DNA from: a phage
Length of the DNA stretch: 64,000 bases
Direction: 5' to 3' (one strand)
Sequence record: NC_129898.1
Positions 40,156 through 62,459 of the stretch are shown piece after piece; position 1 is the stretch's first letter; every line of letters begins with the position of its first letter. The notes under the pieces are model-generated. The model was not told the DNA's origin. It searched no databases and worked only from the letters and a program-made list of their open reading frames with translations. A program made the position numbers and the translations under genes.

Positions 40156-40483
40156 AAATAACATTGTGGCTTCGTGCAGTGATGCACGTCGAAAACCTCT
40201 TTAATTGACGGGAAGGCTAAGTTGACTTTTACACCTAAACATGGTAAAAGCTCAATATGCTAATCCGCAGCGAAGCATCCGAGAGGATGAACGTTCAGAG
40301 ACTATCGAAAGCATAGCTCCAACACAGTTTGGGGTGAAGAAGCGAGTAGAGTAGGCCAGCAAGTGCGGTCGAAATGAGAGGTGCCTTGGTAACAAGGCAG
40401 TGAGATAGTCCGATCCATACGGGAAACTGTATGGCTATGCACGTAATGGTGCGGGGTAGCTTAACGACCTACCTGAACTATTG
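40156..40483 (+). ncRNA. group I self-splicing intron in the DNA polymerase gene, no internal ORF
   Basis: Conserved core elements P (aattgacgggaagg 40203), Q (aatccgcagc 40262), R (gttcagagactatc 40303), S (gagatagtccg 40402); 5' exon ends in U, intron ends in G; guide-like gtgg at 40167 pairs with exon end ccau. Confidence 0.7.
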
Positions 40484-49116: not shown

Positions 49117-49454
49117 CAGAGATCATCATTTCAACTGCAGGGTATGTATTCCTGACAATCATTGCGCTGATCATCTTGGTGGTGGTGTATGGATTTGTTA
49201 TCCTGCCTATTCTTGAGACATTTAGTTTGTGTCGGTGTTGGAGAAAGGCTTACGGACCACAGCCGTGGAAAGACTGGCCTCATCTGTTACGCATAGCGTT
49301 CTCCTATGCCTATGATCACTCCAGCAGTGCATGCATAACTGGGTACCACGCCCACAATTGGAACTGGGAAGGGTTGGGGAGATGGAATGTTACAAAGACT
49401 ATACCTCTACGCATGTACAAAGGAAAAGGTGGGATTGATGGGAATACCTGTTAA
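49113..49454 (+). CDS. membrane protein
   Basis: 113 aa with N-terminal transmembrane-like segment YVFLTIIALIILVVVYGFVILPIL. Confidence 0.45.
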   Translation: MTEIIISTAGYVFLTIIALIILVVVYGFVILPILETFSLCRCWRKAYGPQPWKDWPHLLRIAFSYAYDHSSSACITGYHAHNWNWEGLGRWNVTKTIPLRMYKGKGGIDGNTC

Positions 49455-50082
49455 AGACAGAAAAGTATGTGGTCGTGGAGTAAACGATTTAAAAGACAAA
49501 GTCCCAATGTACCAATCTGTTAATGGTAAGAGAGTACCAGAACCCCACTATGCTACATGGAAAGCATTATTCCAGAGGTGCTACGGCGATAACTCAAAGT
49601 ACCATACAGGTTGTGAAGTTGTAGAAGATTGGTGGTTGTTCTCAGAATTCTGGAAATGGATGGATACACAAGAGTGGAAAAGAGACGCTAAGAAGTTCAC
49701 TCTTGACAAAGATCTGAAAATCCCTGGAAACAGAATATACTCCCCAGAAACATGCATGTTTGTTCCACCACAAATAAACACCCTATTTGGCATAAGACAG
49801 GCAGCACGAGGGGATTTACCTTTGGGTGTGACACTTAGAAAAGATGTAAACAAGTATCTCGTGCATTGTCATCGAGATGGAAAAATTGTTCATGGCGGTC
49901 ATTTCGATGATCCACAGACAGCACACAAGGTGTGGCAAGAAATGAAACTTGAGGAGATGAAACTTCAGGCTATTAAAAACAAAGATGAGATTTGGCTGTT
50001 CGCCATTAAACGTGCAATAACTATCCTTGAGAATGATTTGAAAAATAATAAGGAGACTATAACATTGGTGAAATTTATTTAA
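49438..50082 (+). CDS. AP2-domain protein, putative HNH-AP2 homing endonuclease
   Basis: ATG 49438; C-terminal GVTLRKDVNKYLVHCHRDGKIVHGGHFDDPQTAHKVW resembles the AP2 DNA-binding domain; N-terminal W..F..RCY...GC.V...W.FSEFWKWM motif. Confidence 0.5.
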   Translation: MGIPVKDRKVCGRGVNDLKDKVPMYQSVNGKRVPEPHYATWKALFQRCYGDNSKYHTGCEVVEDWWLFSEFWKWMDTQEWKRDAKKFTLDKDLKIPGNRIYSPETCMFVPPQINTLFGIRQAARGDLPLGVTLRKDVNKYLVHCHRDGKIVHGGHFDDPQTAHKVWQEMKLEEMKLQAIKNKDEIWLFAIKRAITILENDLKNNKETITLVKFI

Positions 50083-50411
50083 GATATTTATGGTAGTATT
50101 TATTTTAAAATTATAAAAATTTTAGGCGATGAGGGAAAATATGTAATGGATTTTCCCTTATTTATCAGATATTTGCAGATATTTGGAAATCCTTAGAAAA
50201 TCAGAAAATGGATCGAAAACTAAAATGGATTTTTTCAAGACAGGCACGATAAGCTGCGCTGCTCATTCTATCGTTCGCACCGTACTTCAAATCACCATTC
50301 CAGATTTTCCGCACATACTCTCACCCCTCTGCCAGAACTTTCCCAACTTACCTTCAGCCTTTTATGACAATAAGTTAATTATTATCAGTAAGTTTTGATA
50401 CATCTCTCTCA

Positions 50412-50495
50412 GTACTCGATCTGTTTTTCATTTCAAAGATTGGATTTTCTGAAAATTTTTCTCGATAAATTTTTCGGTACTCGATCTGTTTTTCG
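50412..50495. repeat. 18-bp perfect direct repeat pair (gtactcgatctgtttttc) in an AT-rich non-coding block
   Basis: Copies at 50412-50429 and 50478-50495; further short repeats (aaatggatttt, ttttcgttttc) nearby. Confidence 0.85.
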
Positions 50496-50730
50496 TTTTC
50501 TGAATCGGATTTTCTTGAAATTGGTCCAGCACCAGATCTAAAATTTTTGGGAACGAAAGCGATTTTTCGTTTTCAGAAATGGATTTTTAAAATTTCTATA
50601 TGGGAATATTTTATGAGGTATTATTTTATATAGAATTGTCACGGTAGGTAATTAGCATGCTAACTAAATTTATGAAATGCGAAAAGTTCTCATTTAGAAT
50701 TTTGAATGATAATCATTCTCGTTTGCAGAA

Positions 50731-50906
50731 TAACGGGCACCCCCGGTGATTGTCTCCCGGCCCCTACTGCCCCGGCTTGTTATTATAGTATCACACAGGA
50801 CAAAGAAAGCAAGAAGTTTTTGCATAAATTTTTAGACGATAATGATAATCGTTCTCATTTCATGCAGCGCCCATCCCCGGTGGTTGTCTCCCCCGTCACC
50901 GGTGCC
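50731..50906. repeat. two direct copies of a roughly 45-70 bp dyad-containing repeat unit
   Basis: acgggcacccccggtgattgtctcccggcc at 50731 and cccatccccggtggttgtctcccccgtcaccggtgcc at 50870; inverted copy at 59118-59160. Confidence 0.85.
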
Positions 50907-51064
50907 TGCCGTCCTTTCGATATGTATATTGTGCCACCTGGCGGGGCCGCTGTCAACACTTTTCAAAAAAATTCTAACCTGATGCGCTAACCGTTGCAAC
51001 CTGGCGGGGCCAGCCTGGTGGGCCTATGCTATAGGATAGTAACAATTGAAGAGGAGGTACAAAA

Positions 51065-51181
51065 ATGGAAGGTAATATGATCCCCCTGGAAAATGTAGCT
51101 ATTAATGACGCTGAGGCTATCGCCCTGGTTGAAAAGGCTATGGCGGGAGCGTTGGAACATAAAGAAGAGTACGAAAAATGA
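51065..51181 (+). CDS. small hypothetical protein (38 aa)
   Basis: ATG after RBS GAGGAGG; below the track size cut-off. Confidence 0.35.
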   Translation: MEGNMIPLENVAINDAEAIALVEKAMAGALEHKEEYEK

Positions 51182-51243
51182 CGGTTAACCTGGCAGGGGC
51201 GGCGGCTGGGGAATTTTGCCCAAAAAATAATTTTAACTAGTGG

Positions 51244-51272
51244 TTGACAGCTCGGACAGTTTTTGTTATTCT
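51244..51272 (+). promoter_or_regulatory. sigma70-like promoter (TTGACA-17-TATTCT)
   Basis: Consensus -35 with 17-nt spacer. Confidence 0.5.
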
Positions 51273-51325
51273 TATCCTCGCAAGGTGAACAACACCACAC
51301 TAATTAACAGAGAGGATAAAAAATC

Positions 51326-51523
51326 ATGAACGCCTACGGAATCAAAGTACGTCGCAGCACTCGCCAGGTGGTCACCGATCAAATGATTTGCCAGGTGGAT
51401 GTGACCATCAACAACGGGCAAGGCCTTTATAAATTCCGTCGCGGTCAGAGCTATACCCGGCAACAGCTTAATCGTTGCGCCCTGACAAAAGGCCAGATCA
51501 ACCACTGGTTTAATAAAAAATAA
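51326..51523 (+). CDS. hypothetical small basic protein
   Basis: 65 aa after RBS GAGAGGA. Confidence 0.5.
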   Translation: MNAYGIKVRRSTRQVVTDQMICQVDVTINNGQGLYKFRRGQSYTRQQLNRCALTKGQINHWFNKK

Positions 51524-51526
51524 GTA

Positions 51527-51555
51527 TTGACATATAGGCCGACACCAAATACACT
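51527..51555 (+). promoter_or_regulatory. sigma70-like promoter (TTGACA-17-TACACT)
   Basis: Hexamers with 17-nt spacer upstream of the ORF at 51588. Confidence 0.5.
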
Positions 51556-51587
51556 AAAAGCACAAAAGACACTGAGAGGATAAAATC

Positions 51588-51986
51588 ATGAAAACCACCA
51601 CCTTTAATTTTGATAATGCGGACTTTTCTTTTTCTGATGTCAAAAACTGCCGCCGTGATCGTGGATTTTACAAGGCCTATAATCTGGTGGGCCTGGACGA
51701 TGACAATAATTTGCACGAAGTAGCTGAGATCCGGTATTATGCCGCCGCCAGCGGGAACACTTACTACTGCGTTTTTTGGATACACGACAACAAGAACAAT
51801 AAGTACGGCTATACTGGCGGCAAGGCGAGCGGTCACGGTTACGATAAAGCTAACGCAGCACTTGAGAGCGCATTAAATGCTATGGGGATCACTGCCGACG
51901 GCTGGATCTACGAAGAAGAGTTTTTGTCGGCACTTGCTGCCCATCTAGGGTATAAAAAGCACATTGTGACATGTGCCCACGAATAA
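51588..51986 (+). CDS. hypothetical protein
   Basis: 132 aa after RBS GAGAGGA. Confidence 0.55.
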   Translation: MKTTTFNFDNADFSFSDVKNCRRDRGFYKAYNLVGLDDDNNLHEVAEIRYYAAASGNTYYCVFWIHDNKNNKYGYTGGKASGHGYDKANAALESALNAMGITADGWIYEEEFLSALAAHLGYKKHIVTCAHE

Positions 51987-51991
51987 AAATC

Positions 51992-52048
51992 ATTGACACG
52001 CTGCAAAATTCAAGTAAACTAGACACAAAAGGCGGGAATGTTTCCCGC
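51992..52048 (+). promoter_or_regulatory. promoter plus 5'UTR stem-loop cassette (TTGACA ... ggcggg-aatgtt-tcccgcc)
   Basis: -35 TTGACA at 51992, -10-like aaacta, perfect stem-loop at 52030-52048, then aacacaaa and RBS. Confidence 0.5.
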
Positions 52049-52068
52049 CAACACAAAGGAAAAAGATC

Positions 52069-52473
52069 ATGAATAAGAACGTACGCCGCATCATGAACGA
52101 GTTGGCAAACGATGAAAAAATTATTGACATGCATTTGATCAACATTTGCCGCCGTTGTGTAACATATAACAACCGCGCCGCAAAAGCGCGTGAGATGAAC
52201 GCAAAAGGCACCTTAAAGCCATTCCAGGTGGTGGTAAAGGCCATTAAAAATGTAACTAATACGGCAAACCAGGTACAGGGGAACACCAACGAGAGTACCA
52301 ATATTGATCCGGCTTACATCATGAAACGGATCCGGACCTATAAGAACAAAGAGCAAGTGTATAATGTTATAGACTGGTTGGATTCTATGGGCGACGTGGT
52401 GTACAATAGATTCTCGGCAGCTATTGAGATCCAGCTTGACAGGTTGGACGGTAAAGTACTGAAAACTTATTAA
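52069..52473 (+). CDS. hypothetical protein
   Basis: 134-aa ORF. Confidence 0.55.
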   Translation: MNKNVRRIMNELANDEKIIDMHLINICRRCVTYNNRAAKAREMNAKGTLKPFQVVVKAIKNVTNTANQVQGNTNESTNIDPAYIMKRIRTYKNKEQVYNVIDWLDSMGDVVYNRFSAAIEIQLDRLDGKVLKTY

Positions 52474-52484
52474 GTTTATTTTTA

Positions 52485-52508
52485 GATGGCCTTGACTCTA
52501 GGGCCATC
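52485..52508 (+). repeat. conserved hairpin element gatggccttgactctagggccatc (copy 1 of 4)
   Basis: 7-bp stem with TTGACT in the loop; preceded by tttatttttag and followed by aataaagtaaac; copies at 53107, 53437 (variant), 56829. Confidence 0.8.
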
Positions 52509-52553
52509 AATAAAGTAAACTAGTCTCAACTAAGCGAAAAAGGGGGCTTTAAG

Positions 52554-52673
52554 ATGAGCACTACACGCCAATACACAAAGGTAACTATTATCGTTTGCGT
52601 TGTCGGTTACATCCTGGCGCAAATGTTAATGAGTAGCGCCAACAGTTTTGCAAAATTTTTCTTAAATTTTTAA
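52554..52673 (+). CDS. small hydrophobic peptide (39 aa)
   Basis: ATG after RBS AAGGGGG; central hydrophobic segment. Confidence 0.4.
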   Translation: MSTTRQYTKVTIIVCVVGYILAQMLMSSANSFAKFFLNF

Positions 52674-52730
52674 TTGACAAGTAAATCTCAATAAGTATAC
52701 TTAAACACGTAAACGGGAAAACTTCCCAGA
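52674..52730 (+). promoter_or_regulatory. promoter plus stem-loop cassette, copy A (TTGACA-16-TATACT, degenerate stem-loop)
   Basis: Nearly identical over about 55 nt to the cassette at 54512-54568. Confidence 0.55.
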
Positions 52731-52752
52731 ACACACAAAAGGAGAAAACACC

Positions 52753-53094
52753 ATGACTACTATGACCGCCGCAGAAAAAGCTATGCAGATCGCCGCGCTG
52801 AAAAAACAGATCGCAGACCTTGAGAACAAGATCGATAACTTTGAAATCGACGAGGACAAGTACGACGAAAACTATAATGAATGGCTAGACGAGATCCACG
52901 GCGAAATTATGATCGGTAACATTTCTTTTCTTCCGTCGCGTATCCTCAAAGAGTTAGATCCTATTGCTTACCGCTGCGGATTTAGCGATTACATCGATAG
53001 CCTGGATATTGAGGACGATGAAGAGTACCAAGAATTGCAGATAGAGCTGGGAGAAGTGAAAGAGGAGCTTTCAAAGCTGGAAGAGAACGAGTAA
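52753..53094 (+). CDS. hypothetical acidic protein
   Basis: 113 aa after RBS AAGGAGA. Confidence 0.55.
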   Translation: MTTMTAAEKAMQIAALKKQIADLENKIDNFEIDEDKYDENYNEWLDEIHGEIMIGNISFLPSRILKELDPIAYRCGFSDYIDSLDIEDDEEYQELQIELGEVKEELSKLEENE

Positions 53095-53106
53095 AATTTA
53101 TTTTTA

Positions 53107-53130
53107 GATGGCCTTGACTCCAGGGCCATC
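53107..53130 (+). repeat. conserved hairpin element (copy 2)
   Basis: gatggccttgactccagggccatc with the same flanks. Confidence 0.8.
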
Positions 53131-53181
53131 AATAAAGTAAACTTTACACTGTTAACACTGAACTAATGAGGAGTTAAAACT

Positions 53182-53427
53182 ATGGCAGCACTAATCACCA
53201 AATATTATGCGCCTACCAACACAAAAAGCGCCCGTATCATGGTAAAAGGCTTCGGACGTAAAAAGGTTTACGCCTGGGACTATTCCCTAGATATGGAAGA
53301 CAATTATACCAACGTAATGACCGATTTTATTAATGATCTGAATAAACAGATCTTAACCGACTACAAAGTGACCGATATTGCTTACATAGGTGAAGGCGGG
53401 ATCTGTTTTGTAGGCATTGTGAAATAG
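53182..53427 (+). CDS. hypothetical protein
   Basis: 81 aa after RBS GAGGAG. Confidence 0.5.
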   Translation: MAALITKYYAPTNTKSARIMVKGFGRKKVYAWDYSLDMEDNYTNVMTDFINDLNKQILTDYKVTDIAYIGEGGICFVGIVK

Positions 53428-53436
53428 TTATTTTTC

Positions 53437-53460
53437 GGTGGTCCTGGTTGCAGGGCCATC
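53437..53460 (+). repeat. conserved hairpin element (copy 3, variant)
   Basis: ggtggtcctggttgcagggccatc with a similar 5' flank. Confidence 0.6.
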
Positions 53461-53502
53461 TATAAAGATAATTTATTAACACCATGAAAGGAGAAAGTAC
53501 AC

Positions 53503-53856
53503 ATGATCAGCGGGGCTAGTTTTATTATTGGCGCTATTGCTACGGCTTTAATTGTAAACAAGATCCAGGATAAAAAGGAAAGAGGAAGTACCGCCCTTGC
53601 AGAATATCCATTTTGGACATTTAACGATAACGAAGATTATATTATAAAGTATAAAAATAAAGAAGGCGACCAAGTAACACCGCGACCGATCCCGGCTTAC
53701 AAAATGCAGGAAACACTATACCGCTTGGAGGCGGGGGGCGCAAAAATTGTTGACTTTTGGGGATACGACCACACAGATCAGGAAGTTATAAAGCGCCGTA
53801 TCCGGGCTATTCAGGCCAATATTGAGGTTAACAAGGGGGGAATATATGAAAATTAA
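53503..53856 (+). CDS. hypothetical protein with N-terminal hydrophobic segment
   Basis: 117 aa after RBS AAGGAGA. Confidence 0.5.
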   Translation: MISGASFIIGAIATALIVNKIQDKKERGSTALAEYPFWTFNDNEDYIIKYKNKEGDQVTPRPIPAYKMQETLYRLEAGGAKIVDFWGYDHTDQEVIKRRIRAIQANIEVNKGGIYEN

Positions 53857-54043
53857 TTTCGAGAAAATTGTAAAGCGCCCTCATGATTCCGAAGAGTTGC
53901 CAGAACGCCGACAGCGCAACAATAAACTGAATAAGCCAAAAAGGTTTGGGAAGATCTGGCGGAATCATTATGATCGTAAATTGCCCGGCCTACTTTTGGA
54001 ACGTGAACGACAGGCAGAACGATACCGCCATAAAGACAAATAA
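53846..54043 (+). CDS. small basic protein
   Basis: ATG 53846 after RBS AAGGGGGG (track begins at 53822). Confidence 0.45.
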   Translation: MKINFEKIVKRPHDSEELPERRQRNNKLNKPKRFGKIWRNHYDRKLPGLLLERERQAERYRHKDK

Positions 54044-54049
54044 CAACCA

Positions 54050-54080
54050 ACGCCCCGCCATTGTGCGGGGCTTTTTATTT
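54050..54080 (+). terminator. rho-independent terminator
   Basis: Hairpin ccccgc-cattgt-gcgggg followed by ctttttattt. Confidence 0.65.
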
Positions 54081-54201
54081 CTATCCTACGAATAGCGCCC
54101 CTGGTTGGCCCTGTAAGCGCCAAAAAGGCCCCCACCTATGCAATCGCCCCCTTTAACCTGAAAACATCGCTCAGGGCCGTTTTATAGCGTTAAAAATATC
54201 A

Positions 54202-54229
54202 TTGACATCGTCAACAGGTTAGCTATACT
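54202..54229 (+). promoter_or_regulatory. sigma70-like promoter (TTGACA-16-TATACT)
   Basis: Upstream of RBS AAAGGAG and the ORF at 54262. Confidence 0.5.
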
Positions 54230-54261
54230 AACCACATCAAAGAGAGAAAGGAGTAAACGCC

Positions 54262-54522
54262 ATGCGTAAATTAAAAAATTTTGATAAAGTTGATGTTATC
54301 CTGAATAATTTTTACTACTGCAACAACAAGGCTATTTGGTGGCGGGATAGTTCCACCGATAAAGTCAAGGCGCGCTTTCTTCAGGGGCACTGGCAAGGCC
54401 GCCCAGTGATTAAAATCATGGGGCAATTGGTAGCGTTTAAAAATTGCCGCCGTGTTGATGACGTTGAGGAGATTTTAAACATTTTGCGCCACAATAATTT
54501 AAAAAATAGTGTTGACAAGTAA
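54262..54522 (+). CDS. hypothetical protein
   Basis: 86-aa ORF. Confidence 0.5.
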   Translation: MRKLKNFDKVDVILNNFYYCNNKAIWWRDSSTDKVKARFLQGHWQGRPVIKIMGQLVAFKNCRRVDDVEEILNILRHNNLKNSVDK

Positions 54523-54568
54523 ATCTCAATAAGTATAATTAAACACACAGGCGGGAAAACTTCCCGCC
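54512..54568 (+). promoter_or_regulatory. promoter plus stem-loop cassette, copy B (TTGACA-16-TATAAT, ggcggg-aaaact-tcccgcc)
   Basis: Consensus promoter then perfect stem-loop at 54550-54568; duplicate of the cassette at 52674. Confidence 0.6.
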
Positions 54569-54596
54569 ACTAACAAAGAAAACAGGAGAAAATATC

Positions 54597-55220
54597 ATGA
54601 CCACCGTTAACATTACCACAGGTTACAATTTATCTTTCGACGTGCTGACCGACGAACAAAAAGAAAAAGCCATTGAAATGGTCCGCGAAAGAGAAGAACG
54701 CAGCGGGGATGATTTTTTCGCAGAAAATGTAATTGATTACTACAAAGAATATATCTTTCCAGAGTACGGCCTTGAGGATACCGAAGTACATTGGTCCGGC
54801 TTTTGGTGTCAAGGCGATGGCGCATCGATTAGTGCTGAAAATGTAGACTTAGAAAAATTCTTGCGTAAAGTCAAGGCCCTGACCAAGTTCAGATCAATTC
54901 GTCACTTGTTCGGCACAATGCACGATGGCGAACTATCCGCCAGTGTTGAACGCGACAAGTACAGCCATTACAGCCATGAAAACACTGTAAGCGGGTACAT
55001 TGATACCACTTGGATAGATCTGACCGCCAAACAAGAAAACAAAGTGGAAGATCTGGAAGAATTGATCACCGAGACGGTACGGGAGCTATCCCGCAAGGTT
55101 TACGTAGACCTTGAGGAGGCCTATCTAGAACAGTTCACCGCAGAAAACCTGATCGGCCTTATTCAGGCCAATGATTGGCGGTTTGATGTCGATGAATATG
55201 GTGAGATGACTTTTTCATAA
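54597..55220 (+). CDS. hypothetical protein
   Basis: 207 aa after RBS AGGAGA. Confidence 0.55.
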   Translation: MTTVNITTGYNLSFDVLTDEQKEKAIEMVREREERSGDDFFAENVIDYYKEYIFPEYGLEDTEVHWSGFWCQGDGASISAENVDLEKFLRKVKALTKFRSIRHLFGTMHDGELSASVERDKYSHYSHENTVSGYIDTTWIDLTAKQENKVEDLEELITETVRELSRKVYVDLEEAYLEQFTAENLIGLIQANDWRFDVDEYGEMTFS

Positions 55221-55228
55221 ATAAAGTG

Positions 55229-55289
55229 TTGCAATAACCTAAAAACCTGCTATATTAAAACTCAAGGCGGGCGAGACGTTTGCCCGCCA
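55229..55289 (+). promoter_or_regulatory. promoter plus stem-loop cassette (TTGCAA-16-TATATT, ggcgggcgagacgtttgcccgcc)
   Basis: Stem-loop at 55267-55289 followed by aacacaaa and RBS AGAGGA. Confidence 0.5.
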
Positions 55290-55313
55290 ACACAAAACAA
55301 AGAGGATAACATC

Positions 55314-55694
55314 ATGAAAAATACTACCAAGGCTATTGACACCGTTATGTTTAACCTGGTTACATTCCGTGAAGATATGAAAGATCTTCCGCGTGAAACA
55401 GTGTGCGACCATATCGAAAACTATCGCAAACTAATCAAAGAGTTGCCTTTAAAACGTGATCAATATGCGGCTAACGCCATGCTTAATGCCATGATCAAAA
55501 AGATGATCCAGTGTGATTTAACCCTGGCCTATGATTATGCAGGCGGTCGTTTTGCAGTATACAATCAGCCCGTGCCCGGTATGAGTACCACCGAAGAATT
55601 GCACGCGCTCAATCTAAAACAGGACGTGTGGGATAGTATGCCTCGCGTGGTGGTATGGGTAGAAAGCGGAAAGATTTACGGCGATAATTTTTAA
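55314..55694 (+). CDS. hypothetical protein
   Basis: 126-aa ORF. Confidence 0.55.
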   Translation: MKNTTKAIDTVMFNLVTFREDMKDLPRETVCDHIENYRKLIKELPLKRDQYAANAMLNAMIKKMIQCDLTLAYDYAGGRFAVYNQPVPGMSTTEELHALNLKQDVWDSMPRVVVWVESGKIYGDNF

Positions 55695-55758
55695 TCAGGT
55701 AGCAGGCGGCATATTTGCCGCCTTATTGTTGATCAGAACTGCAAAAGAGGTACATAGA

Positions 55759-56130
55759 ATGGAATTTATTATTTTGGCTGTATTGGTTGCCTTATTTAAC
55801 GCCTGGATCGCTGGCAAGATGGGAAGATCCGCCTTTTTATGGTTTATTATATCTATTTTCCTGGGGGTGGTTGCAACTATTGTATTGGTTATCCTTGCAA
55901 TTGTTGACAAGGGGAATAATAGAAAGGGTAAAGTATTTTCAGACCTGTACGACGCTCAAACTTTTGTTAACGCCTATTATAGTGATCTCCCAGTCTCCCT
56001 ACGTTGCAGCCTTGCACAACAGGTTTTCGATGAAGCTAAAACCAGAGACCACGCCCATGAGATTTGTTTAACTGAGGCGGATCGCTTATTTGAGAGGAAT
56101 AGAAAATATGTGGGCCAGCCGTTTAAATAA
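55759..56130 (+). CDS. membrane protein (two predicted TM segments)
   Basis: ATG 55759 after RBS AAGAGG (track begins at 55726); hydrophobic helices. Confidence 0.5.
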   Translation: MEFIILAVLVALFNAWIAGKMGRSAFLWFIISIFLGVVATIVLVILAIVDKGNNRKGKVFSDLYDAQTFVNAYYSDLPVSLRCSLAQQVFDEAKTRDHAHEICLTEADRLFERNRKYVGQPFK

Positions 56131-56329
56131 TACCACGTTAATTAATCCATTTAGTGAAGATTTGAGGCCAGCCGCCTGGCGGGATGGATTCAATAACGAA
56201 AAATTTACTTTTAGGCCTGATCTTGAGGAATTTTATAACAATGGATCGAACAACGACAGAGATAATTTTTCTTGCGGTGTGTGTCGTGATCGGACTACTG
56301 GGAGCCATTGCAAACCACGTAACCGCTAA
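56108..56329 (+). CDS. hypothetical protein (alternative frame 56241-56366 also possible)
   Basis: ATG 56108 after RBS GAGAGGA; overlaps a second plausible small TM ORF in another frame. Confidence 0.3.
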   Translation: MWASRLNNTTLINPFSEDLRPAAWRDGFNNEKFTFRPDLEEFYNNGSNNDRDNFSCGVCRDRTTGSHCKPRNR

Positions 56330-56349
56330 CAGAAGGAAAGGGGGAGACG

Positions 56350-56469
56350 ATGACACCCAAGGATAAGCCCCGCACCGATAAGGCGCGCCGTGTTATGGTA
56401 TGGCTGGAGATCATCGCCCTTGAAATATTGTTAGGCGTAGGGATGTATTTTATCGCCGTACGTACCTGA
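56350..56469 (+). CDS. small membrane peptide (39 aa)
   Basis: ATG after RBS AAGGGGGAG; hydrophobic C-terminal half; terminator follows. Confidence 0.45.
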   Translation: MTPKDKPRTDKARRVMVWLEIIALEILLGVGMYFIAVRT

Positions 56470-56473
56470 TAAC

Positions 56474-56506
56474 GGCCCCCGATCCCTGGGGGCCTGACTT
56501 TTTTCA
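56474..56506 (+). terminator. rho-independent terminator
   Basis: Hairpin ggccccc-gatccct-gggggcc followed by tgacttttttc. Confidence 0.65.
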
Positions 56507-56528
56507 AAAAAATTTTTCTTCCGGGGTG

Positions 56529-56582
56529 TTGCAATCCGGTCCGGGATATGGATAATAACAATCAACGGGGAGACACTCCCCA
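56529..56582 (+). promoter_or_regulatory. promoter plus stem-loop cassette (TTGCAA-16-GATAAT, ggggag-acac-tcccc)
   Basis: Shares the spacer core atatggataataa with the cassette at 57347. Confidence 0.5.
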
Positions 56583-56615
56583 CCACACAGACAAAGTTCC
56601 AAAAGGAGAAACAAA

Positions 56616-56816
56616 ATGAGCAACAATATCCGCGTTATTAATTTCAAAAAAGAAGAAAAAATCGCTGTGCTGGTTGATGGTCAAGAAATATTCAAGGGGT
56701 ATTATGAAGATCATCAGGCGGCGATCAGTATTACCCGCGTAATTGGTTACCATAATTTTTACCCTCAAGGCGCTGAGGCAGCAGTAAAACGAATTAAAGA
56801 GATCGTAGGCCTGTAA
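56616..56816 (+). CDS. hypothetical protein
   Basis: 66 aa after RBS AAGGAGA. Confidence 0.5.
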   Translation: MSNNIRVINFKKEEKIAVLVDGQEIFKGYYEDHQAAISITRVIGYHNFYPQGAEAAVKRIKEIVGL

Positions 56817-56828
56817 AATTTATTTTTA

Positions 56829-56852
56829 GATGGCCTTGACCCCAGGGCCATC
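56829..56852 (+). repeat. conserved hairpin element (copy 4)
   Basis: gatggccttgaccccagggccatc with the same flanks. Confidence 0.8.
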
Positions 56853-56902
56853 AAATAAAGTAAATTTAAACCCTGCTAAAATAATCAGTGCAAAAAGGAG
56901 CA

Positions 56903-57208
56903 ATGATCATGTTTATACCCGCCAATAATCTTTATTTCTTTGATGGTCAGATCGTAGACGGCGTGGAAGTTGAGATCACTGGATGTCAAGGCGGCCAGGT
57001 AATGATCTTCCGCAATAGTGCCTTTAACGATCATTTTATTACAATGACTGTGGAAGTTAAAAAGCTGGATGATAAGAAAACACTCATTGACTATTCCGTG
57101 AAAGATCATCCAGACTACCACATGATCTATGGTGATTTGTGCATTGTTGACCGTGACAAGGTGGGCGGCATTGTGATCGCTATTGTGAACGATGTTTTCT
57201 CTGAATAA
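56903..57208 (+). CDS. hypothetical protein
   Basis: ATG 56903 (or 56909) after RBS AAAGGAG (track begins at 56888). Confidence 0.5.
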   Translation: MIMFIPANNLYFFDGQIVDGVEVEITGCQGGQVMIFRNSAFNDHFITMTVEVKKLDDKKTLIDYSVKDHPDYHMIYGDLCIVDRDKVGGIVIAIVNDVFSE

Positions 57209-57346
57209 TTCCGGCAAATGATGCAAAATAAGGCCCATGGCAGGGCCTGCAGCGATATAATCACACAAAGGCTATGCGGTTGCATGGCCTTTTTTATTTT
57301 AGCGCTACAGCGGCCCCCAAGGCGTTTAAAAAATTTTTAAAAGTAC

Positions 57347-57398
57347 TTGCATCAAGTCCGACAATATGGATAATAAGACTTATCAGGGGGCGGCCCCC
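57347..57398 (+). promoter_or_regulatory. promoter plus stem-loop cassette (TTGCAT-16-GATAAT, gggggcggccccc)
   Basis: Hexamers with 16-nt spacer, stem-loop at 57384-57398, then RBS and ATG 57431. Confidence 0.5.
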
Positions 57399-57430
57399 AA
57401 TCATTAACCGGATAGATAGGAGTTAAAATC

Positions 57431-57715
57431 ATGGCTATTGTTACTGTTGGCGATGTAGTAGAAATGGAAGCAAAATACTTAAAAGCGGGTATGCATATCC
57501 TACGCAACGATCTTGAACTAGTCCTGACAATGGTCGACTATAATCCCGGTCAGGATTATCCAAGCATCGACTACTTTTTCCAGTATGTTGATGAAGAATT
57601 AAAAGAGGATGAGGCTTATCAGGGTGAATTTTGTAATTTCTTTTGCCCTGACGAGATTGTAAAAGTTATCTATCAACCTGGCGTACCTTTCCCGTTGCAC
57701 GCCATCAATAAATAA
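57431..57715 (+). CDS. hypothetical protein
   Basis: 94 aa after RBS TAGGAG. Confidence 0.55.
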   Translation: MAIVTVGDVVEMEAKYLKAGMHILRNDLELVLTMVDYNPGQDYPSIDYFFQYVDEELKEDEAYQGEFCNFFCPDEIVKVIYQPGVPFPLHAINK

Positions 57716-57778
57716 GCCTGGCGGGGCCGAAAAAGGCCCCTCCTGAAAATATGAAAAAATAAAGATAGGTGAATCATC

Positions 57779-58012
57779 ATGATGGAACAAATTAAACGCG
57801 CTGAGGCTATTAATGGTAATGTGATCTATTTTGTCAGCAAAAACGAAAAAGGCGTACCCTATGCGGCGGTAATAGTACAGCCTGACGGCGATTATTGGTG
57901 CACTGTGTACGGCGCTTATTCTTTTGGGCGTCCAGTGCATGATAAAATTTTGAAAGTAGCGAACCCTACCGGGAAAAATATCACAGCAGAAAAATTTTTT
58001 GAAAATAGTTGA
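57779..58012 (+). CDS. hypothetical protein
   Basis: 77-aa ORF. Confidence 0.5.
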   Translation: MMEQIKRAEAINGNVIYFVSKNEKGVPYAAVIVQPDGDYWCTVYGAYSFGRPVHDKILKVANPTGKNITAEKFFENS

Positions 58013-58076
58013 CAACAAACAACAATCTAACAAAGCATAATACATAAGGCGGCAATGATGCCGCCAACATGACAGA

Positions 58077-58340
58077 ATGAGAAACATCATTTACAGACTG
58101 ACAAAACGCAACATTATGATCGCCACCGTGATCGCTTGCCTTTTCGCTTTCGTGAGTAACGCAACGTTTAACGCCGTGGGCGGGGCGATGTTTAATGCTG
58201 GCAGCGTTTCAACAGCTAACACAATGATCGATTGTTTGCAACTTTTCTTTTATGTTGCCTTTCGTTTAAAAATAGCTTGCAAGGTAGACCGTTTTGATTT
58301 ACCTTTCATTTGTGGCGGCGTGATCGCTATCGTATGTTAA
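58077..58340 (+). CDS. hypothetical hydrophobic protein (start uncertain)
   Basis: 87 aa; preceded by a TTGACA promoter-like site and stem-loop ggcggcaatgatgccgcc; weak RBS. Confidence 0.35.
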   Translation: MRNIIYRLTKRNIMIATVIACLFAFVSNATFNAVGGAMFNAGSVSTANTMIDCLQLFFYVAFRLKIACKVDRFDLPFICGGVIAIVC

Positions 58341-58507
58341 GGATCAGAAGATGGGAAAACTCTCAATTCTGTTGTTTTATCAAAAACCTTGACAATATCA
58401 GAATGTACAGACGGTTAAAAATAATTGTTGACACCAGGCGCGGATCTGGTAAAGTGTACGACATAGGGCGGGGCAATAAGGCAACGCCCATTAATGATGG
58501 TGGAATC

Positions 58508-58612
58508 ATGTTAGAAAAAATTTTCACGGTTGTAGTAGTTGGCATGGCATTATCGGTTGGAGTGGTTGCAACTATGGCTAACATGATCCTATCTTCCCAC
58601 GGTATCGGGTAA
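58508..58612 (+). CDS. small membrane peptide (34 aa)
   Basis: Internal ATG of track ORF 58310-58612; the region upstream of it carries promoter-like sequence, so the longer ORF is unlikely. Confidence 0.3.
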   Translation: MLEKIFTVVVVGMALSVGVVATMANMILSSHGIG

Positions 58613-58613
58613 G

Positions 58614-58838
58614 GTGAAACAAATGATCACGAACAAAACAGGGAAAACGGAATTTTTACGCGGCTTGCAAATAGGCAAGCCTGAGATCTGGCATTGCACT
58701 AAAACACCACGTGACGAAATGAAAGACTTTACCGCCACGCTGAAGCGGGTAAAAATATCCATTACGCAGAAAAAAGCCTTGATAGTGGTGGAAGGTGAGA
58801 TCCCTCAAACCGTTGTTATTGTTGAGCGTACAGCATAG
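58614..58838 (+). CDS. hypothetical protein
   Basis: 74-aa ORF. Confidence 0.45.
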   Translation: MKQMITNKTGKTEFLRGLQIGKPEIWHCTKTPRDEMKDFTATLKRVKISITQKKALIVVEGEIPQTVVIVERTA

Positions 58839-58927
58839 TTTAATCTATACCGTACGCCCCATTGACTAACAAAGCATAAGCAGGCGGCGGTGACCGCCTT
58901 GAACGCAACAGAAAGAGAATAGAAAAC

Positions 58928-59062
58928 ATGAGAAAGATAATTATTACCATGGGGATCGTGGCGGCAATGTTGGCGATCTTTCCCTTTATGGTTAGGTATG
59001 TGCTGATCAGTGTTGTCCTGATAGGCAGTGATCTATTGGAAACGGTTGGCAACTGGTTTTAA
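58928..59062 (+). CDS. small membrane peptide (44 aa)
   Basis: Manual ORF, strongly hydrophobic; preceded by a promoter-like site and stem-loop ggcggcggtgaccgcc. Confidence 0.35.
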   Translation: MRKIIITMGIVAAMLAIFPFMVRYVLISVVLIGSDLLETVGNWF

Positions 59063-59117
59063 GATAATAAACAGGGCTTGAAATGGTCCTGTTTTTTGTT
59101 ATACTTATCTCACGGGT

Positions 59118-59160
59118 GGCACCTGGCGACGGGGGGAGACAATCACCGGGGGTGCCCGTT
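59118..59160. repeat. inverted copy of the 50731/50870 dyad repeat unit
   Basis: gggagacaatcaccgggggtgcccgtt is the exact reverse complement of 27 nt at 50731-50757; the extended match resembles the 50870 copy. Confidence 0.85.
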
Positions 59161-59182
59161 ATATAAAAAACTATAAAAACAG

Positions 59183-59211
59183 TTGACATCTGCCAGGTGG
59201 TTAGGTAACAT
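59183..59211 (+). promoter_or_regulatory. sigma70-like promoter (TTGACA-17-TAACAT)
   Basis: Followed by short stem-loop ggggcaaaagtgccc and RBS GAGAGGA before ATG 59266. Confidence 0.5.
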
Positions 59212-59265
59212 TTATCTTGAAGGGGCAAAAGTGCCCACACAACAACCGGAAGAGAGGAAAACATT

Positions 59266-59538
59266 ATGTCAAGCTGGATTAATCAAGAAATCGAATCACG
59301 TTTTAATGCTATTTGGGATCTCATCGAAAAAGAGGACGGAACATCAAGCCCTTATCTCAATAACCTGGAATTTCATTTTGTGGAAGCGATGAACGCAGAA
59401 CATGATCACGAAGGTGGCGCGGATGAGTTCGCTCAAGGGTATGGCTTCAACAATGCCAACGAAATGATTGAGGCGGTTGTACTTCAGGCTGAGGAAGATT
59501 ATCAATTAAAAACACTTGAATTTTGCCGCCGTAAGTAA
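59266..59538 (+). CDS. hypothetical acidic protein
   Basis: 90-aa ORF. Confidence 0.55.
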   Translation: MSSWINQEIESRFNAIWDLIEKEDGTSSPYLNNLEFHFVEAMNAEHDHEGGADEFAQGYGFNNANEMIEAVVLQAEEDYQLKTLEFCRRK

Positions 59539-59599
59539 TAAGATAATGACACTGGCCAAAAGGCCCACCAAACCAGAACCCCATAAAGAGGAAAACATC

Positions 59600-59863
59600 A
59601 TGAAACGCCTTGATCAGCTCAAACTAGTTCAGTACATGGCCTACAAAGTTATTGAAGTCCAAAAAGGTAGTAAAAAGGAGGTTTGCGAGAAAGCGTACAA
59701 GATCTTTACTCGTAAAAAAGATGATTGGATGTTGCGCCAGACCAAAAAGGCTGATATCCTGGGGTACCTGGAAGAAGAGATCCGGCTTGAAGAGCAAGAA
59801 GAGATCCGCCGAAGTGAGGCAGATTATCAGGCAGCTTGGGAAAGCTGGATGAGCAACAAATAG
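59600..59863 (+). CDS. hypothetical protein
   Basis: ATG 59600 after RBS AAAGAGGA (track begins at 59516). Confidence 0.5.
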   Translation: MKRLDQLKLVQYMAYKVIEVQKGSKKEVCEKAYKIFTRKKDDWMLRQTKKADILGYLEEEIRLEEQEEIRRSEADYQAAWESWMSNK

Positions 59864-59875
59864 TACAACATTATC

Positions 59876-59910
59876 AAGGGGCCTTAAGGCCCCTTTCTTT
59901 TTTGTTTTCT
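59876..59910. terminator. rho-independent terminator ending the plus-strand early block
   Basis: Hairpin aaggggcc-ttaa-ggcccctt followed by tcttttttgtttt. Confidence 0.7.
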
Positions 59911-60510
59911 CTTTTCCTACCATAAACGGCCCCGCCTGGCAAGTGGAATAATTAACGAGCCATCAATCCCGCACACTGTACAAATATACATGTAAAATAG
60001 TTATTGCATAACCTTTCATTGTGTGGTAGCGGTGCTATTTTTACCTGTTTTCTCTCCCAAAATTGCACGTAATGCAGCTATTGCACAAAATTTAACCTGA
60101 TGCACATCTTCAGTATACTGTCAACAATTAAAAACCCTTATAAGTCATACACTTACACAAACCAAAAAGCGCGTCCTACGTGAAAAATCGGGTGTAACTA
60201 TAGCCGACAGATCTCAGAATCCACGTACGATCACCATTCTATAGCCTGCAAAGTATTTATTCCAACCACAGAATAACGGAATAGTCAATACCTGTACAAA
60301 ATAATTATTCGTACAAACTGCATAACATAAACCTGCCCAGGTGTCAACATTTTTCGTAAACAGTTAGAAATTGTCACGATAGGTTACTATAATCAGAGAA
60401 ATATTTAGTCGTCTAATGTTTACTGTACATAACTATACTGACTGGAATCATTAGATGACTAAGAGAAAGATAAGAAATAGTTAACAATGTAATTGTTTTA
60501 CCTGTAACAA

Positions 60511-60707
60511 TAAGGCAACTATGCAAACGAATGGCATGGCGCGACGGAGTCGCGACATAATATAAAAGCAGTAACAATCACCCCCGTGATAGTTTGTCTG
60601 CAATCTATTAATCAGATCATAGTTGCCTTGTATTTAGTTAATCATGACATAACAAGCAAGGCAACTATAGATCTTCTAATAGTTGCCCTGCTTTTATATT
60701 ATGTCAT
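60511..60707. repeat. nested inverted repeats (18-bp gacataatataaaagcag pair; 12-bp atagttgccttg pair) in the non-coding region
   Basis: Perfect 18-bp inverted repeat at 60555-60572 and 60690-60707 encloses a 12-bp inverted repeat pair (60620 and 60656); related copies at 60513 and 60678. Confidence 0.8.
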
Positions 60708-60761
60708 AGAAACGCCCGAAGGGGTGACCTAGTCACCTGGCATAGCCAGCGAAATATTATT

Positions 60762-60824
60762 AACTTGTTAATTGTCAGCTTGTTGGCTGTTAGCTTGTCA
60801 ATTGTTAACTTGCTAATTGTTAAA
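60762..60824. repeat. four tandem copies of a 15-bp unit (agcttgtYaattgtt)
   Basis: acttgttaattgtc agcttgttggctgtt agcttgtcaattgtt aacttgctaattgtt read directly. Confidence 0.8.
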
Positions 60825-62459
60825 CTCGGGAGCATAGCCCTCGTCTCAAGGGTGTTATCATGCAAACGAATGTCATGGCTTATCATCTATGCGTAAACTG
60901 TCAGGGTGTAGACTATTCAGGCGTAAACAGTCTATGCGGGAACAATCTATACGTGAACAGTGAAATATGAAATAATAACAGTCGTTATTGTATCGAAAGT
61001 GTATAAGGTGTCAGATTATGGCATATTGTGTGACATTGTGTCAGACAAGTTTTTCTCCTCTTTGTCAAGTGCTGCATGGAAAATTTACAATCTGGTATGG
61101 TAGCATTTTTGCGGCCCTGTTTACATTCAGGAGTGTATGTATAACCCTTGTTGTGTGGGCGTTTAGACGTCTGGACGGTCAGAAGTCTGCAGGTTAATAT
61201 CTAATCTATTGGTCGCTAACTATATCCCCCACAAATAATAAGAAATGCAATTGTTATATGCGTAAACAGTAACTCATGTTATCAATCCCTGTATGTATCG
61301 CCAGTGGTGCGCATAATGGGTATTATGTTAAATTGCCCGTAATGATAACAGTTCTCACAATGATAGGTATTCTCATTCACCCCCACAAAATAGATTGCAA
61401 ATGTTGTGCCACTGTGTGAACGGCCTCGCCTATTAATTTGCCTCACTGCTCCGATATTTGAGAATTGTTATAAGAATGAGAAGTATTCCCATTTCGTCCG
61501 CCTGGCAGCGCTCCTGTAGGTCAGGTCAAAATCGTGGTAGAACTGGACCCCTTCAGATATTTCTAGCTGACTCTTCAGGCCTGTGTGGGAAAAGCCAACC
61601 TCTCCGGCGGGGCAGGGGGGTCAATTAAAAAATTTACGTAGGGTACGAAGCGCTCTTCAGGTAAGGCATGTATTAGAGGATGAAACCCTCTTCAGGTGAT
61701 GATATTTGTGGGTGTGATATTTGCTGGAAAGCCAGATATGACGGGACTACCGGCGGGGATGGGGTAGTATAGGCAGGGAAAATGTGGAGAATGTGGTTGG
61801 TAAATTTATCAGGCAGGTAGAGTATGGGATATGTTACAGGTATGTTAAATATGGAGGTAGGATATTTGTAAGATTTGTGTGTAAAATCAAAGACTTAAGT
61901 GGTGTTGTGGTATTTTCTATAAATAATTCAAGTTTAATAGGTAATATTTGTCTCTATCCACTTTGTGGGGTAAACAGATTCTAATTGAATTGGTTTACAA
62001 GTGTATATAAAGTATACAAATTAAAGATATAAGAAACCCCCCTCCCCCTTCGGCTACCATTCACCTTTTCCTCTGACTGGTACTTAAACACTTATTCAGA
62101 CTCTTCAGGTTATCACCCATATACTATATGGCAGTGACTGGTGTCCTCTGGCCCCTCTTTCGTCACCCGTCCGCTTCGCCATGCTAATGCCATAGCTAAA
62201 GGTTCGGTTGTTCACCCTGTTCACTCAGGTGTATCTCCATACCCCTTCAAACCGAAGAGAACAGAAAACCCGAATTACTCGGTAAAAGAAAAGAGAAGAA
62301 CTTAATTTTATCAGGATAGGCAAGAATGTCAAGGCATGACTGCTCACTAAACAAGCAAACAGTCATGTGTGGGAGGTAAGTGATTGTGGTGGTAGGAAAT
62401 TTAGTTGAAAGATGTGTTATAGGTGCTTCCAGCACTTTAGCCGGGCAGCTAATTGTGTG

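Follow-up and report, generated by a model that had tools for sequence, protein, structure and literature searches.

Here we describe a 12-mer, CCTGGCGGGGCC, found repeatedly along the early-gene arm in a piece of the genome of an Escherichia coli phage of the Vequintavirus (rV5/FV3-like) group (sequence record NC_129898.1); "the window" denotes the whole stretch of DNA that was analysed, 64,000 nucleotides (nt) in length. Between 50 and 60 kilobases (kb) the window matches the Vequintavirus (rV5-like) coliphages, with FV3 as the best match (96%); sequence records matching this region number about 200. On the plus strand this stretch, which in rV5 terms is the end of transcription unit 10-1-238-164 (PMC3606486), is a series of small ORFan early genes closing at a terminator at 59876-59895. 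By eye, each early gene has a TTGACA-type promoter, a GC hairpin in its 5' leader and a strong ribosome-binding site. The genes are preceded by a non-coding control region of about 1 kb, in which two of the three exact copies of the 12-mer are located. The rV5 genome paper lists sigma-70 promoters and terminators as the only signals, does not mention the 12-mer and found no origin (PMC3606486). Nine Vequintavirus genomes were compared: the window, FV3, rV5_ev156, ime, Gotham, CarlMeissner, 203, V18 and AlexBoehm.

The recurrence of the 12-mer is real, non-random and confined to one arm of the genome, the early-gene arm. Three exact copies, all on the plus strand, are present in the whole window, together with one copy carrying a single mismatch (CCAGGCGGGGCC, minus strand, 59928-59939). 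These four matches at one mismatch or fewer stand against an average of 0.10 over 100 dinucleotide shuffles, none of which reached four, so that the excess over chance expected in the original prediction was confirmed. In the remaining 76 kb of FV3 there is no exact 12-mer and only one one-mismatch match, inside a coding sequence. The degenerate form CCTGG[CT][AG]GG was found six times in the window, always on the plus strand and always within 50.9-57.8 kb; the remaining 54 kb of the window lack it, and it turns up twice in the other 76 kb of FV3. The exact copies and the elements in which they are embedded are as follows.

50083 to 51064, no strand: non-coding control region that separates the replication-gene arm from the small early genes and contains copies 1 and 2.
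50937 to 50948, plus strand: copy 1, CCTGGCGGGGCC, the reverse complement of which lies within the 17-nt spacer of the leftward promoter-like site running from 50956 to 50928.
50928 to 50956, minus strand: leftward sigma-70-type promoter-like site, TTGACA (50956-50951)-17-CACAAT (50933-50928), with TG before the -10, found by scan at a 10/12 match.
51000 to 51011, plus strand: copy 2, CCTGGCGGGGCC, directly after (T/C)TGCAA and forming a mini-palindrome CTGGC-GGG-GCCAG.
57717 to 57728, plus strand: copy 4, CCTGGCGGGGCC, 1 nt past the stop codon TAA of the open reading frame (ORF) 57431-57715 and the 5' arm of a stem-loop.
57723 to 57740, plus strand: stem-loop GGGGCC-gaaaaa-GGCCCC, with no U-tract after the stem (z = -2.5 against shuffles).

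Four less perfect sites accompany them.

51014 to 51024, plus strand: degenerate direct repeat CCTGGTGGGCC, 14 base pairs (bp) past copy 2, recognised in alignments.
51189 to 51200, plus strand: two-mismatch look-alike CCTGGCAGGGGC, coding in relatives (..VNLAGAAAG..) and not counted as a member.
57236 to 57247, plus strand: two-mismatch variant CATGGCAGGGCC (CCTGGCAGGGCC in four relatives), in the loop and 3' arm of a hairpin AGGCCC..GGGCCT.
59928 to 59939, minus strand: reverse one-mismatch copy, non-conserved, 35 nt beyond the arm-end terminator at 59876-59895.

The sites named in the original prediction were recovered with small corrections: the exact copies at 50937 and 51000 stood as given, the third exact copy starts at 57717 rather than 57718, and the reverse copy at 59928 rather than 59927. 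The site at 51189, listed as differing by one mismatch at most, carries two, and the 57236 variant had been absent from that list. The statement that the motif mostly occurs just after stop codons applies to copy 4, alone among the exact copies in directly following one, and loosely to the 57236 variant, which starts 28 nt after one; it fails for copies 1 and 2. A stop codon precedes the look-alike at 51189 in the window alone, because an A-run is 1 nt shorter there than in the relatives, and in FV3 and rV5_ev156 the site is within an annotated coding sequence. The small ORF concerned (51065-51181) has 38 amino acids (aa) in the window and 56-58 aa as annotated in these two phages, its early stop being due to a genuine frameshift or to a sequencing error in the homopolymer. 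In FV3 the reverse copy at 59928 reads GGCCCTACCTGAC; it is replaced by unrelated sequence in rV5_ev156 and ime, and is probably fortuitous. Chance is the best explanation for the look-alikes at 59928, at 51189 and in a coding sequence of the Seunavirus PVP-SE1, and these are what would speak for a chance recurrence of a GC-rich 12-mer as a whole. For the exact copies that explanation is effectively refuted by their number (three against about 0.1 expected) and by orthologous conservation in nine genomes, and we regard its probability as negligible.

Copies 2 and 4 are exact in all nine genomes and copy 1 in seven, the exceptions being Gotham (CCCGG..) and CarlMeissner (CCTGTC..). The block tgcaaCCTGGCGGGGCCagcctggt around copy 2 (50995-51019) is invariant in 9/9 genomes, and the whole of 50650-51011 is nearly so among the compared Vequintavirus genomes; beyond 51064, 46% of non-coding positions are invariant in the nine-genome alignment of the arm. 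One invariant run in this alignment coincides exactly with 57717-57728, that is with the 12-mer, and the other long runs fall mostly on promoters, leader hairpins, ribosome-binding sites and terminators as read from the sequence. The remainder of the copy 4 hairpin varies: its loop is GAAAAA, GAAAA, TTTTC or AAAAA, its 3' arm GGCCCC, GGCCCCC, GGCCCCGCCA or GGCCT, with indels downstream, and in V18 the stem is down to 4 bp. Since the loop and the 3' arm drift while the 12-mer is fixed, the constraint acts on the sequence of the 5' arm, beyond what pairing needs; in this respect the earlier view of a sequence-specific signal rather than generic structure was well founded. The CCTGGC that extends the stem on its 5' side is conserved and usually unpaired.

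In the control region, shuffled sequences fold about as well as copies 1 and 2 do, whichever strand is considered (z = -0.04 to -0.8). In the orientation of the leftward promoter copy 1 reads CCCG-C-CAGG and fills the spacer of TTGACA-17-CACAAT, both hexamers of which are within blocks invariant in the nine genomes. Near copy 2 relatives have two degenerate repeats, CCTGGCAGGACC and TTGCAAaCCTGGTGGGCC, about 36 bp apart, and the window and FV3 share a deletion with its ends inside them; we count this direct-repeat array in favour of an operator-like role. No meaningful match to an Rfam 15 family was obtained for 49900-51500 or for the corresponding regions of GAP31, CR8 and Mydo, and E. coli chromosomes showed no similarity to the control-region segment. 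A 94-codon ORF at 50706-50990, annotated in some relatives, was rejected as a gene on account of 1-nt indels and changes in A/T-run length among relatives and of a 134-nt deletion in AlexBoehm that fuses two internal repeats (units A and B); it has no Pfam match.

The equivalent non-coding gap is found in Seunavirus (PVP-SE1, GAP31, 4MG), Certrevirus (CR8, PcCB7V, F4M1E, POP17), Mydovirus and Phapecoctavirus, and in the first two of these genera it contains a homologous box. The scan of Certrevirus revealed a leftward TTGACG-17-CATAAT (10/12) back to back with a divergent rightward TTGACC-17-CACAAT, 25 nt away, and in four phages the leftward spacer contains G(G)CCCG[G/C]CGGGC(C), with the palindrome GCCCG-S-CGGGC. 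The boxes of PcCB7V and F4M1E differ solely by a central C to G exchange, which switches the strand on which the box reads alike. An inversion, considered as the reason for the opposite orientation of the box in the window and in Certrevirus, is needless, as the core is palindromic and a central C/G change swaps the strands. The three Seunavirus phages have TTGCAT-CC[C/T]GGCGGGGAT-cgtg-TACTAT upstream of a leftward gene of 60 aa, of which the window has no homologue, and in GAP31 and 4MG the box has the dyad ATCCC-N4-GGGAT. Copy 1 (CCCG-C-CAGG) equals the Certrevirus/Seunavirus near-palindrome with a central transversion and one transition. As a related box lies in this spacer across genera, it appears to be older than the split of these genera; the promoter-associated copy is the only one that they have in common. 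A scan of IMG/VR with AACCTGGCGGGGCC returned mostly single, unrelated matches, and was not used, the 14-mer being too short for that collection.

The reading that we favour, with a probability of about 0.4, is that the 12-mer serves the control-region promoters as an operator-like DNA box, of which Vequintavirus acquired additional copies, one of them reused to form an arm of an intergenic stem-loop. It would be the Vequintavirus version of a short GC-rich box with the core CCYG-G-CGGG, placed across the subfamily beside a -35 hexamer, within the spacer of a leftward promoter-like site in the conserved non-coding control region. A sequence-specific protein of the phage or the host would bind the box between the -35 and the -10, and the bound protein would set the firing of the control-region promoters. 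In Vequintavirus, multiplication would have given copy 1 in the spacer and copy 2 at a distance of 63-69 bp on its right, the latter accompanied by one or two degenerate direct repeats. The distal copy 4, 6.7 kb downstream, could be a second binding site (a roadblock or a looping partner), an RNA-stabilising hairpin, or both. That the box is read on duplex DNA, that a protein binds it and that it has an effect are steps which we infer.

Operators of the tetO/TetR and MerR type are located in or next to the sigma-70 promoter spacers of divergent control regions. Like them, the box is short, GC-rich and near-palindromic, occupies the -35 to -10 interval of a promoter-like site arranged back to back with the first early promoter, and is conserved although spacers normally are not. 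Unlike them, it has no known cognate protein, is hardly palindromic in its Vequintavirus version, and has extra copies (51000, 57717) outside promoters.

Several observations weigh against the operator-like reading. The Vequintavirus 12-mer is weakly palindromic (GGC-GGG-GCC), and Pfam searches with 20 ORFs of the arm gave no informative domain, and none of the early ORFs matched a DNA-binding domain. Copy 2 lacks a -10 at a distance of 16-19 nt, and the TTGCAA before it is CTGCAA in six of the nine genomes, which places this copy outside any working sigma-70 promoter; its spacing from copy 1 varies between 63 and 69 bp across genomes. Copy 4 is near no promoter; GGGGCC/GGCCCC-type arms are common in the terminators of this phage, and part of the similarity between the copies could come from a shared hairpin vocabulary. 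Within the spacer, the box of the window is centred about 4 bp away from its position in Certrevirus, and the Seunavirus box adjoins TTGCAT-16-TACTAT, a promoter read by eye which the scan does not call. A spacer position was thus found by scan for copy 1 and Certrevirus, by eye in Seunavirus, and not for copy 4. Promoters are throughout consensus matches and hence predictions, made by scan or, where stated, by eye, and no published transcriptome for Vequintavirinae was found in the literature. A second CCTGGCGGGGAT in PVP-SE1, which would have indicated that a promoter copy and a downstream hairpin copy vary together, is in a real coding sequence and is lost in GAP31, and was dismissed as a coincidence.

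The original prediction took the motif for a processing, termination or protein-binding signal at gene ends, which in its RNA form means that an RNA-binding protein or endonuclease would act on plus-strand transcripts in processing, 3'-end formation or factor-dependent termination. The exact copies and all six degenerate sites are indeed on the sense (plus) strand, and two sites, copy 4 and the variant at 57236, come after stop codons and form hairpins beside A/U-rich sequence. That only some of the sites form hairpins also proved correct, clear ones existing just at 57717 (the 12-mer as 5' arm) and at 57236 (the variant in loop and 3' arm). However, no U-tract follows any copy, copies 1 and 2 lie in the non-coding promoter region without stable RNA structure, and only three to five sites face about 25 early genes. 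In Seunavirus and Certrevirus, moreover, the box is in a leftward spacer, so a rightward RNA would carry only its complement. Because the homologous box occupies leftward promoter-like spacers, on the strand opposite to the early genes, recognition as DNA fits better than an RNA 3'-end or processing signal. We consider the RNA signal improbable, processing at copy 4 being conceivable, and the idea of a gene-end or transcript-end marker or terminator is probably wrong.

Copy 4 was also compared with terminators and antitermination sites. The rV5 intrinsic terminators t026, t027 and t164 use GGGGCC/GGCCCC stems (PMC3606486, Table S4). Copy 4 has the same GGGGCC...GGCCCC stem just after a gene, but, unlike these terminators, it is inside an operon, where no promoter precedes the following gene, and has a conserved unpaired CCTGGC extension; it is the only copy with a stable stem-loop, the sequence after the stem is tcctgaaaat or caattatg, and the terminator scan makes no call. 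In lambda nut, boxB is GCCCU-GAAAA-AGGGC. The GC stem of copy 4 is likewise closed by a GAAAA loop in five of the nine genomes, but in the others the loop is GAAAAA, TTTTC or AAAAA, the conserved part is the 5' arm and not the loop, and inspection by eye of the sequence upstream of copy 4 revealed no boxA. The reverse complement, GGCCCC-G-CCA, was considered as a tRNA or tRNA-like element and rejected, since ARAGORN detected no tRNA anywhere in the window and, at copy 4, this strand is the antisense one. By eye, sigma-54, sigma-32, ops/RfaH, KOPS, boxA/boxB and Chi do not fit either.

A further explanation draws on the repeats of the arm, among them the following one.

56474 to 56560, plus strand: terminator-promoter cassette, GGCCCCCgatCCCTGGGGGCC tgac TTTTTTCAAAAAAATT ... 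TTGCAA tccggtccgggatatg GATAAT.

The segment from copy 1 to copy 2 can be aligned with this cassette, in which CCCTGGGGGCC is the terminator 3' arm and a GC-rich stretch follows TTGCAA; several other repeat families are found in the early arm. The 12-mer might therefore be shared cassette vocabulary without a dedicated reader, a GC-rich piece of hairpin arm or spacer that spread through duplication or gene conversion. The early arm would then be a patchwork of recombining terminator and promoter cassettes, in which 57717 is purely an RNA stem-loop shielding the upstream mRNA from 3' decay, and 50937 and 51000 are relics. Consistent with this are the GGGGCC/GGCCCC stems of the rV5 terminators, the sequence upstream of copy 4 (TTGCAC-GCCATCAATAAA-TAAGCC), which resembles a decayed promoter cassette, and signs of recombination between repeats: the deletion in the window and FV3 ends in CCTGG repeats, and AlexBoehm has its unit A-B junction. 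By eye, several early promoters have CCWGG or GC-rich sequence just past the -35. Relics should drift, however, whereas no other non-coding block of the arm is as conserved as the one with copies 1 and 2; at 57717 just the 5' arm is invariant, including the usually unpaired CCTGGC, so that the invariance of the 12-mer alone goes unexplained; and the box is retained in promoter-like spacers of other genera. We judge this explanation possible but doubtful.

T4-type phages reportedly have mobile regulatory cassettes of near-identical units of about 70 bp, called promoter-early stem-loop (PeSL) and said to have been described by Arbiol et al. in 2010. As with PeSL, repeated promoter and stem-loop modules stand between many small early genes here, and deletion ends in repeats suggest recombination. 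Unlike PeSL, the motif copies have only 12 nt in common and the flanks of copy 4 are unrelated; units of the PeSL kind do occur in the arm (52470, 53092, 56814), without being those of the motif. These near-identical early promoter cassettes (52470-52525, 53092-53146 and 56814-56875, with a variant at 53431-53470) read AAATTTATTTTTAGATGGCCTTGAC[TC]C[CT]AGGGCCATCAATAAAGTAAAC, and an inverted repeat ATGGCC/GGCCAT flanks their -35. The design of the early 5' leaders is uniform: past nearly all early promoters a GC hairpin stands about 10 nt from the -10 (for example GGCGGGAA..TTCCCGCC), followed by AACACAAA and a ribosome-binding site. Such leader hairpins are at 52031-52049, 54550-54568, 55267-55287, 56563-56585, 58048-58065 and 58882-58899.

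The repeats around copy 2 also resemble iterons of phage and plasmid origins, being clustered in the same orientation in a non-coding region beside an A/T-rich tract. The 12-mer could accordingly belong to replication or DNA metabolism, either as iteron-like origin repeats beside the A/T tract and the G-rich units, or as strand-specific nick or Chi-like sites near the genome end. Relatives have three to four same-orientation repeats in about 150 bp around a variable A/T run, the copies share a single strand, the region contains further direct repeats (65-74 nt), and the leftward promoter-like site would transcribe non-coding G-rich units only. In contrast to iterons, the repeats are irregularly spaced (63-69, 14 and about 48 bp), no initiator gene has been identified next to them, and one copy is 6.7 kb away. 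Canonical Chi, GCTGGTGG, is absent from the window; the motif matches it at 6/8 positions and CCTGGTGG at 51014 at 7/8. No nicks have been reported in phages of this group, nor was an origin identified in the rV5 paper. We hold this explanation to be very unlikely.

Other elements of the control region deserve description in their own right. Two palindromes, TTGAATGATAATCATTCTC (50702-50720) and GATAATGATAATCGTTCTC (50838-50856), match at 15/19 and 17/19 positions what we take to be the E. coli Fur-box consensus, GATAATGATAATCATTATC; distant genera retain two to four copies of AAATGAGAATCATTCTCATTT at this locus, and 50676-50751 has 80-89% identity in phages of Klebsiella, Cronobacter, Salmonella, Pectobacterium and Proteus. 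Judged from the sequence, the palindromes could be an iron-responsive or phage-repressor operator overlapping TTGAAT-18-CAGAAT. The G-rich units A (50730-50758) and B (50866-50925), which have CACCCCCGGTG[A/G]TTGTCTCCC in common and form one fused unit in AlexBoehm, may be leftward non-coding transcripts; they have no Rfam match. A 29-nt copy of unit A is inverted at 59134-59162, 8.4 kb off, just downstream of a plus-strand promoter-like TTGAAA-16-TATACT. The differences CC>GG and AC>GT in unit A were considered as compensatory changes, a reading that was dropped when no consistent pairing was seen by eye on either strand. At 50402-50590 there are three non-coding direct repeats of 65-74 nt (TACTCGATCTGTTTTTC..GGATTTT). 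In the related Certrevirus PhiTE an intergenic repeat that can expand acts as a mimic of the ToxI antitoxin RNA (PMC3475682); the repeats at 50402-50590 show no obvious sequence similarity to it.

Directly upstream of the non-coding region an ORF of 231 aa (49387-50176) has no Pfam match; the alignments of most relatives begin at about 50177 of the window and miss the 3' end of this ORF, which is probably an accessory insertion. At 40146-40433, on the plus strand, the window has a group I intron (Rfam RF00028, 75.6 bits, E = 2e-17), and at the matching place relatives annotate a two-piece DNA polymerase and an HNH homing endonuclease. A long ORF-poor stretch at about 59900-61500 separates the converging early arm and minus-strand genes; the Gotham record annotates a 459-bp terminal repeat about 1 kb past the matching terminator, and the physical end of the genome is probably near 60.9-61.4 kb.

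A bolder form of the operator-like reading, which we think unlikely, is that the box is the recognition site of a DNA-binding factor of Vequintavirinae or of the host, which would switch a non-coding hub by means of a small iteron-like array, the distal site coupling early-gene read-through to it. If this were true, the hub, with its leftward G-rich transcripts, Fur-box-like palindromes and long direct repeats, could be a replication origin or the early-to-middle switch of the rV5-like phages, widely used candidates for therapy and biocontrol. Should the 12-mer be merely cassette vocabulary, it still marks apparent recombination points of mosaic early regions. The box connects the non-coding control region with a site inside the early operon, and as a strictly conserved element of 12 bp it would offer a handle for finding the regulator and mapping the early switch.

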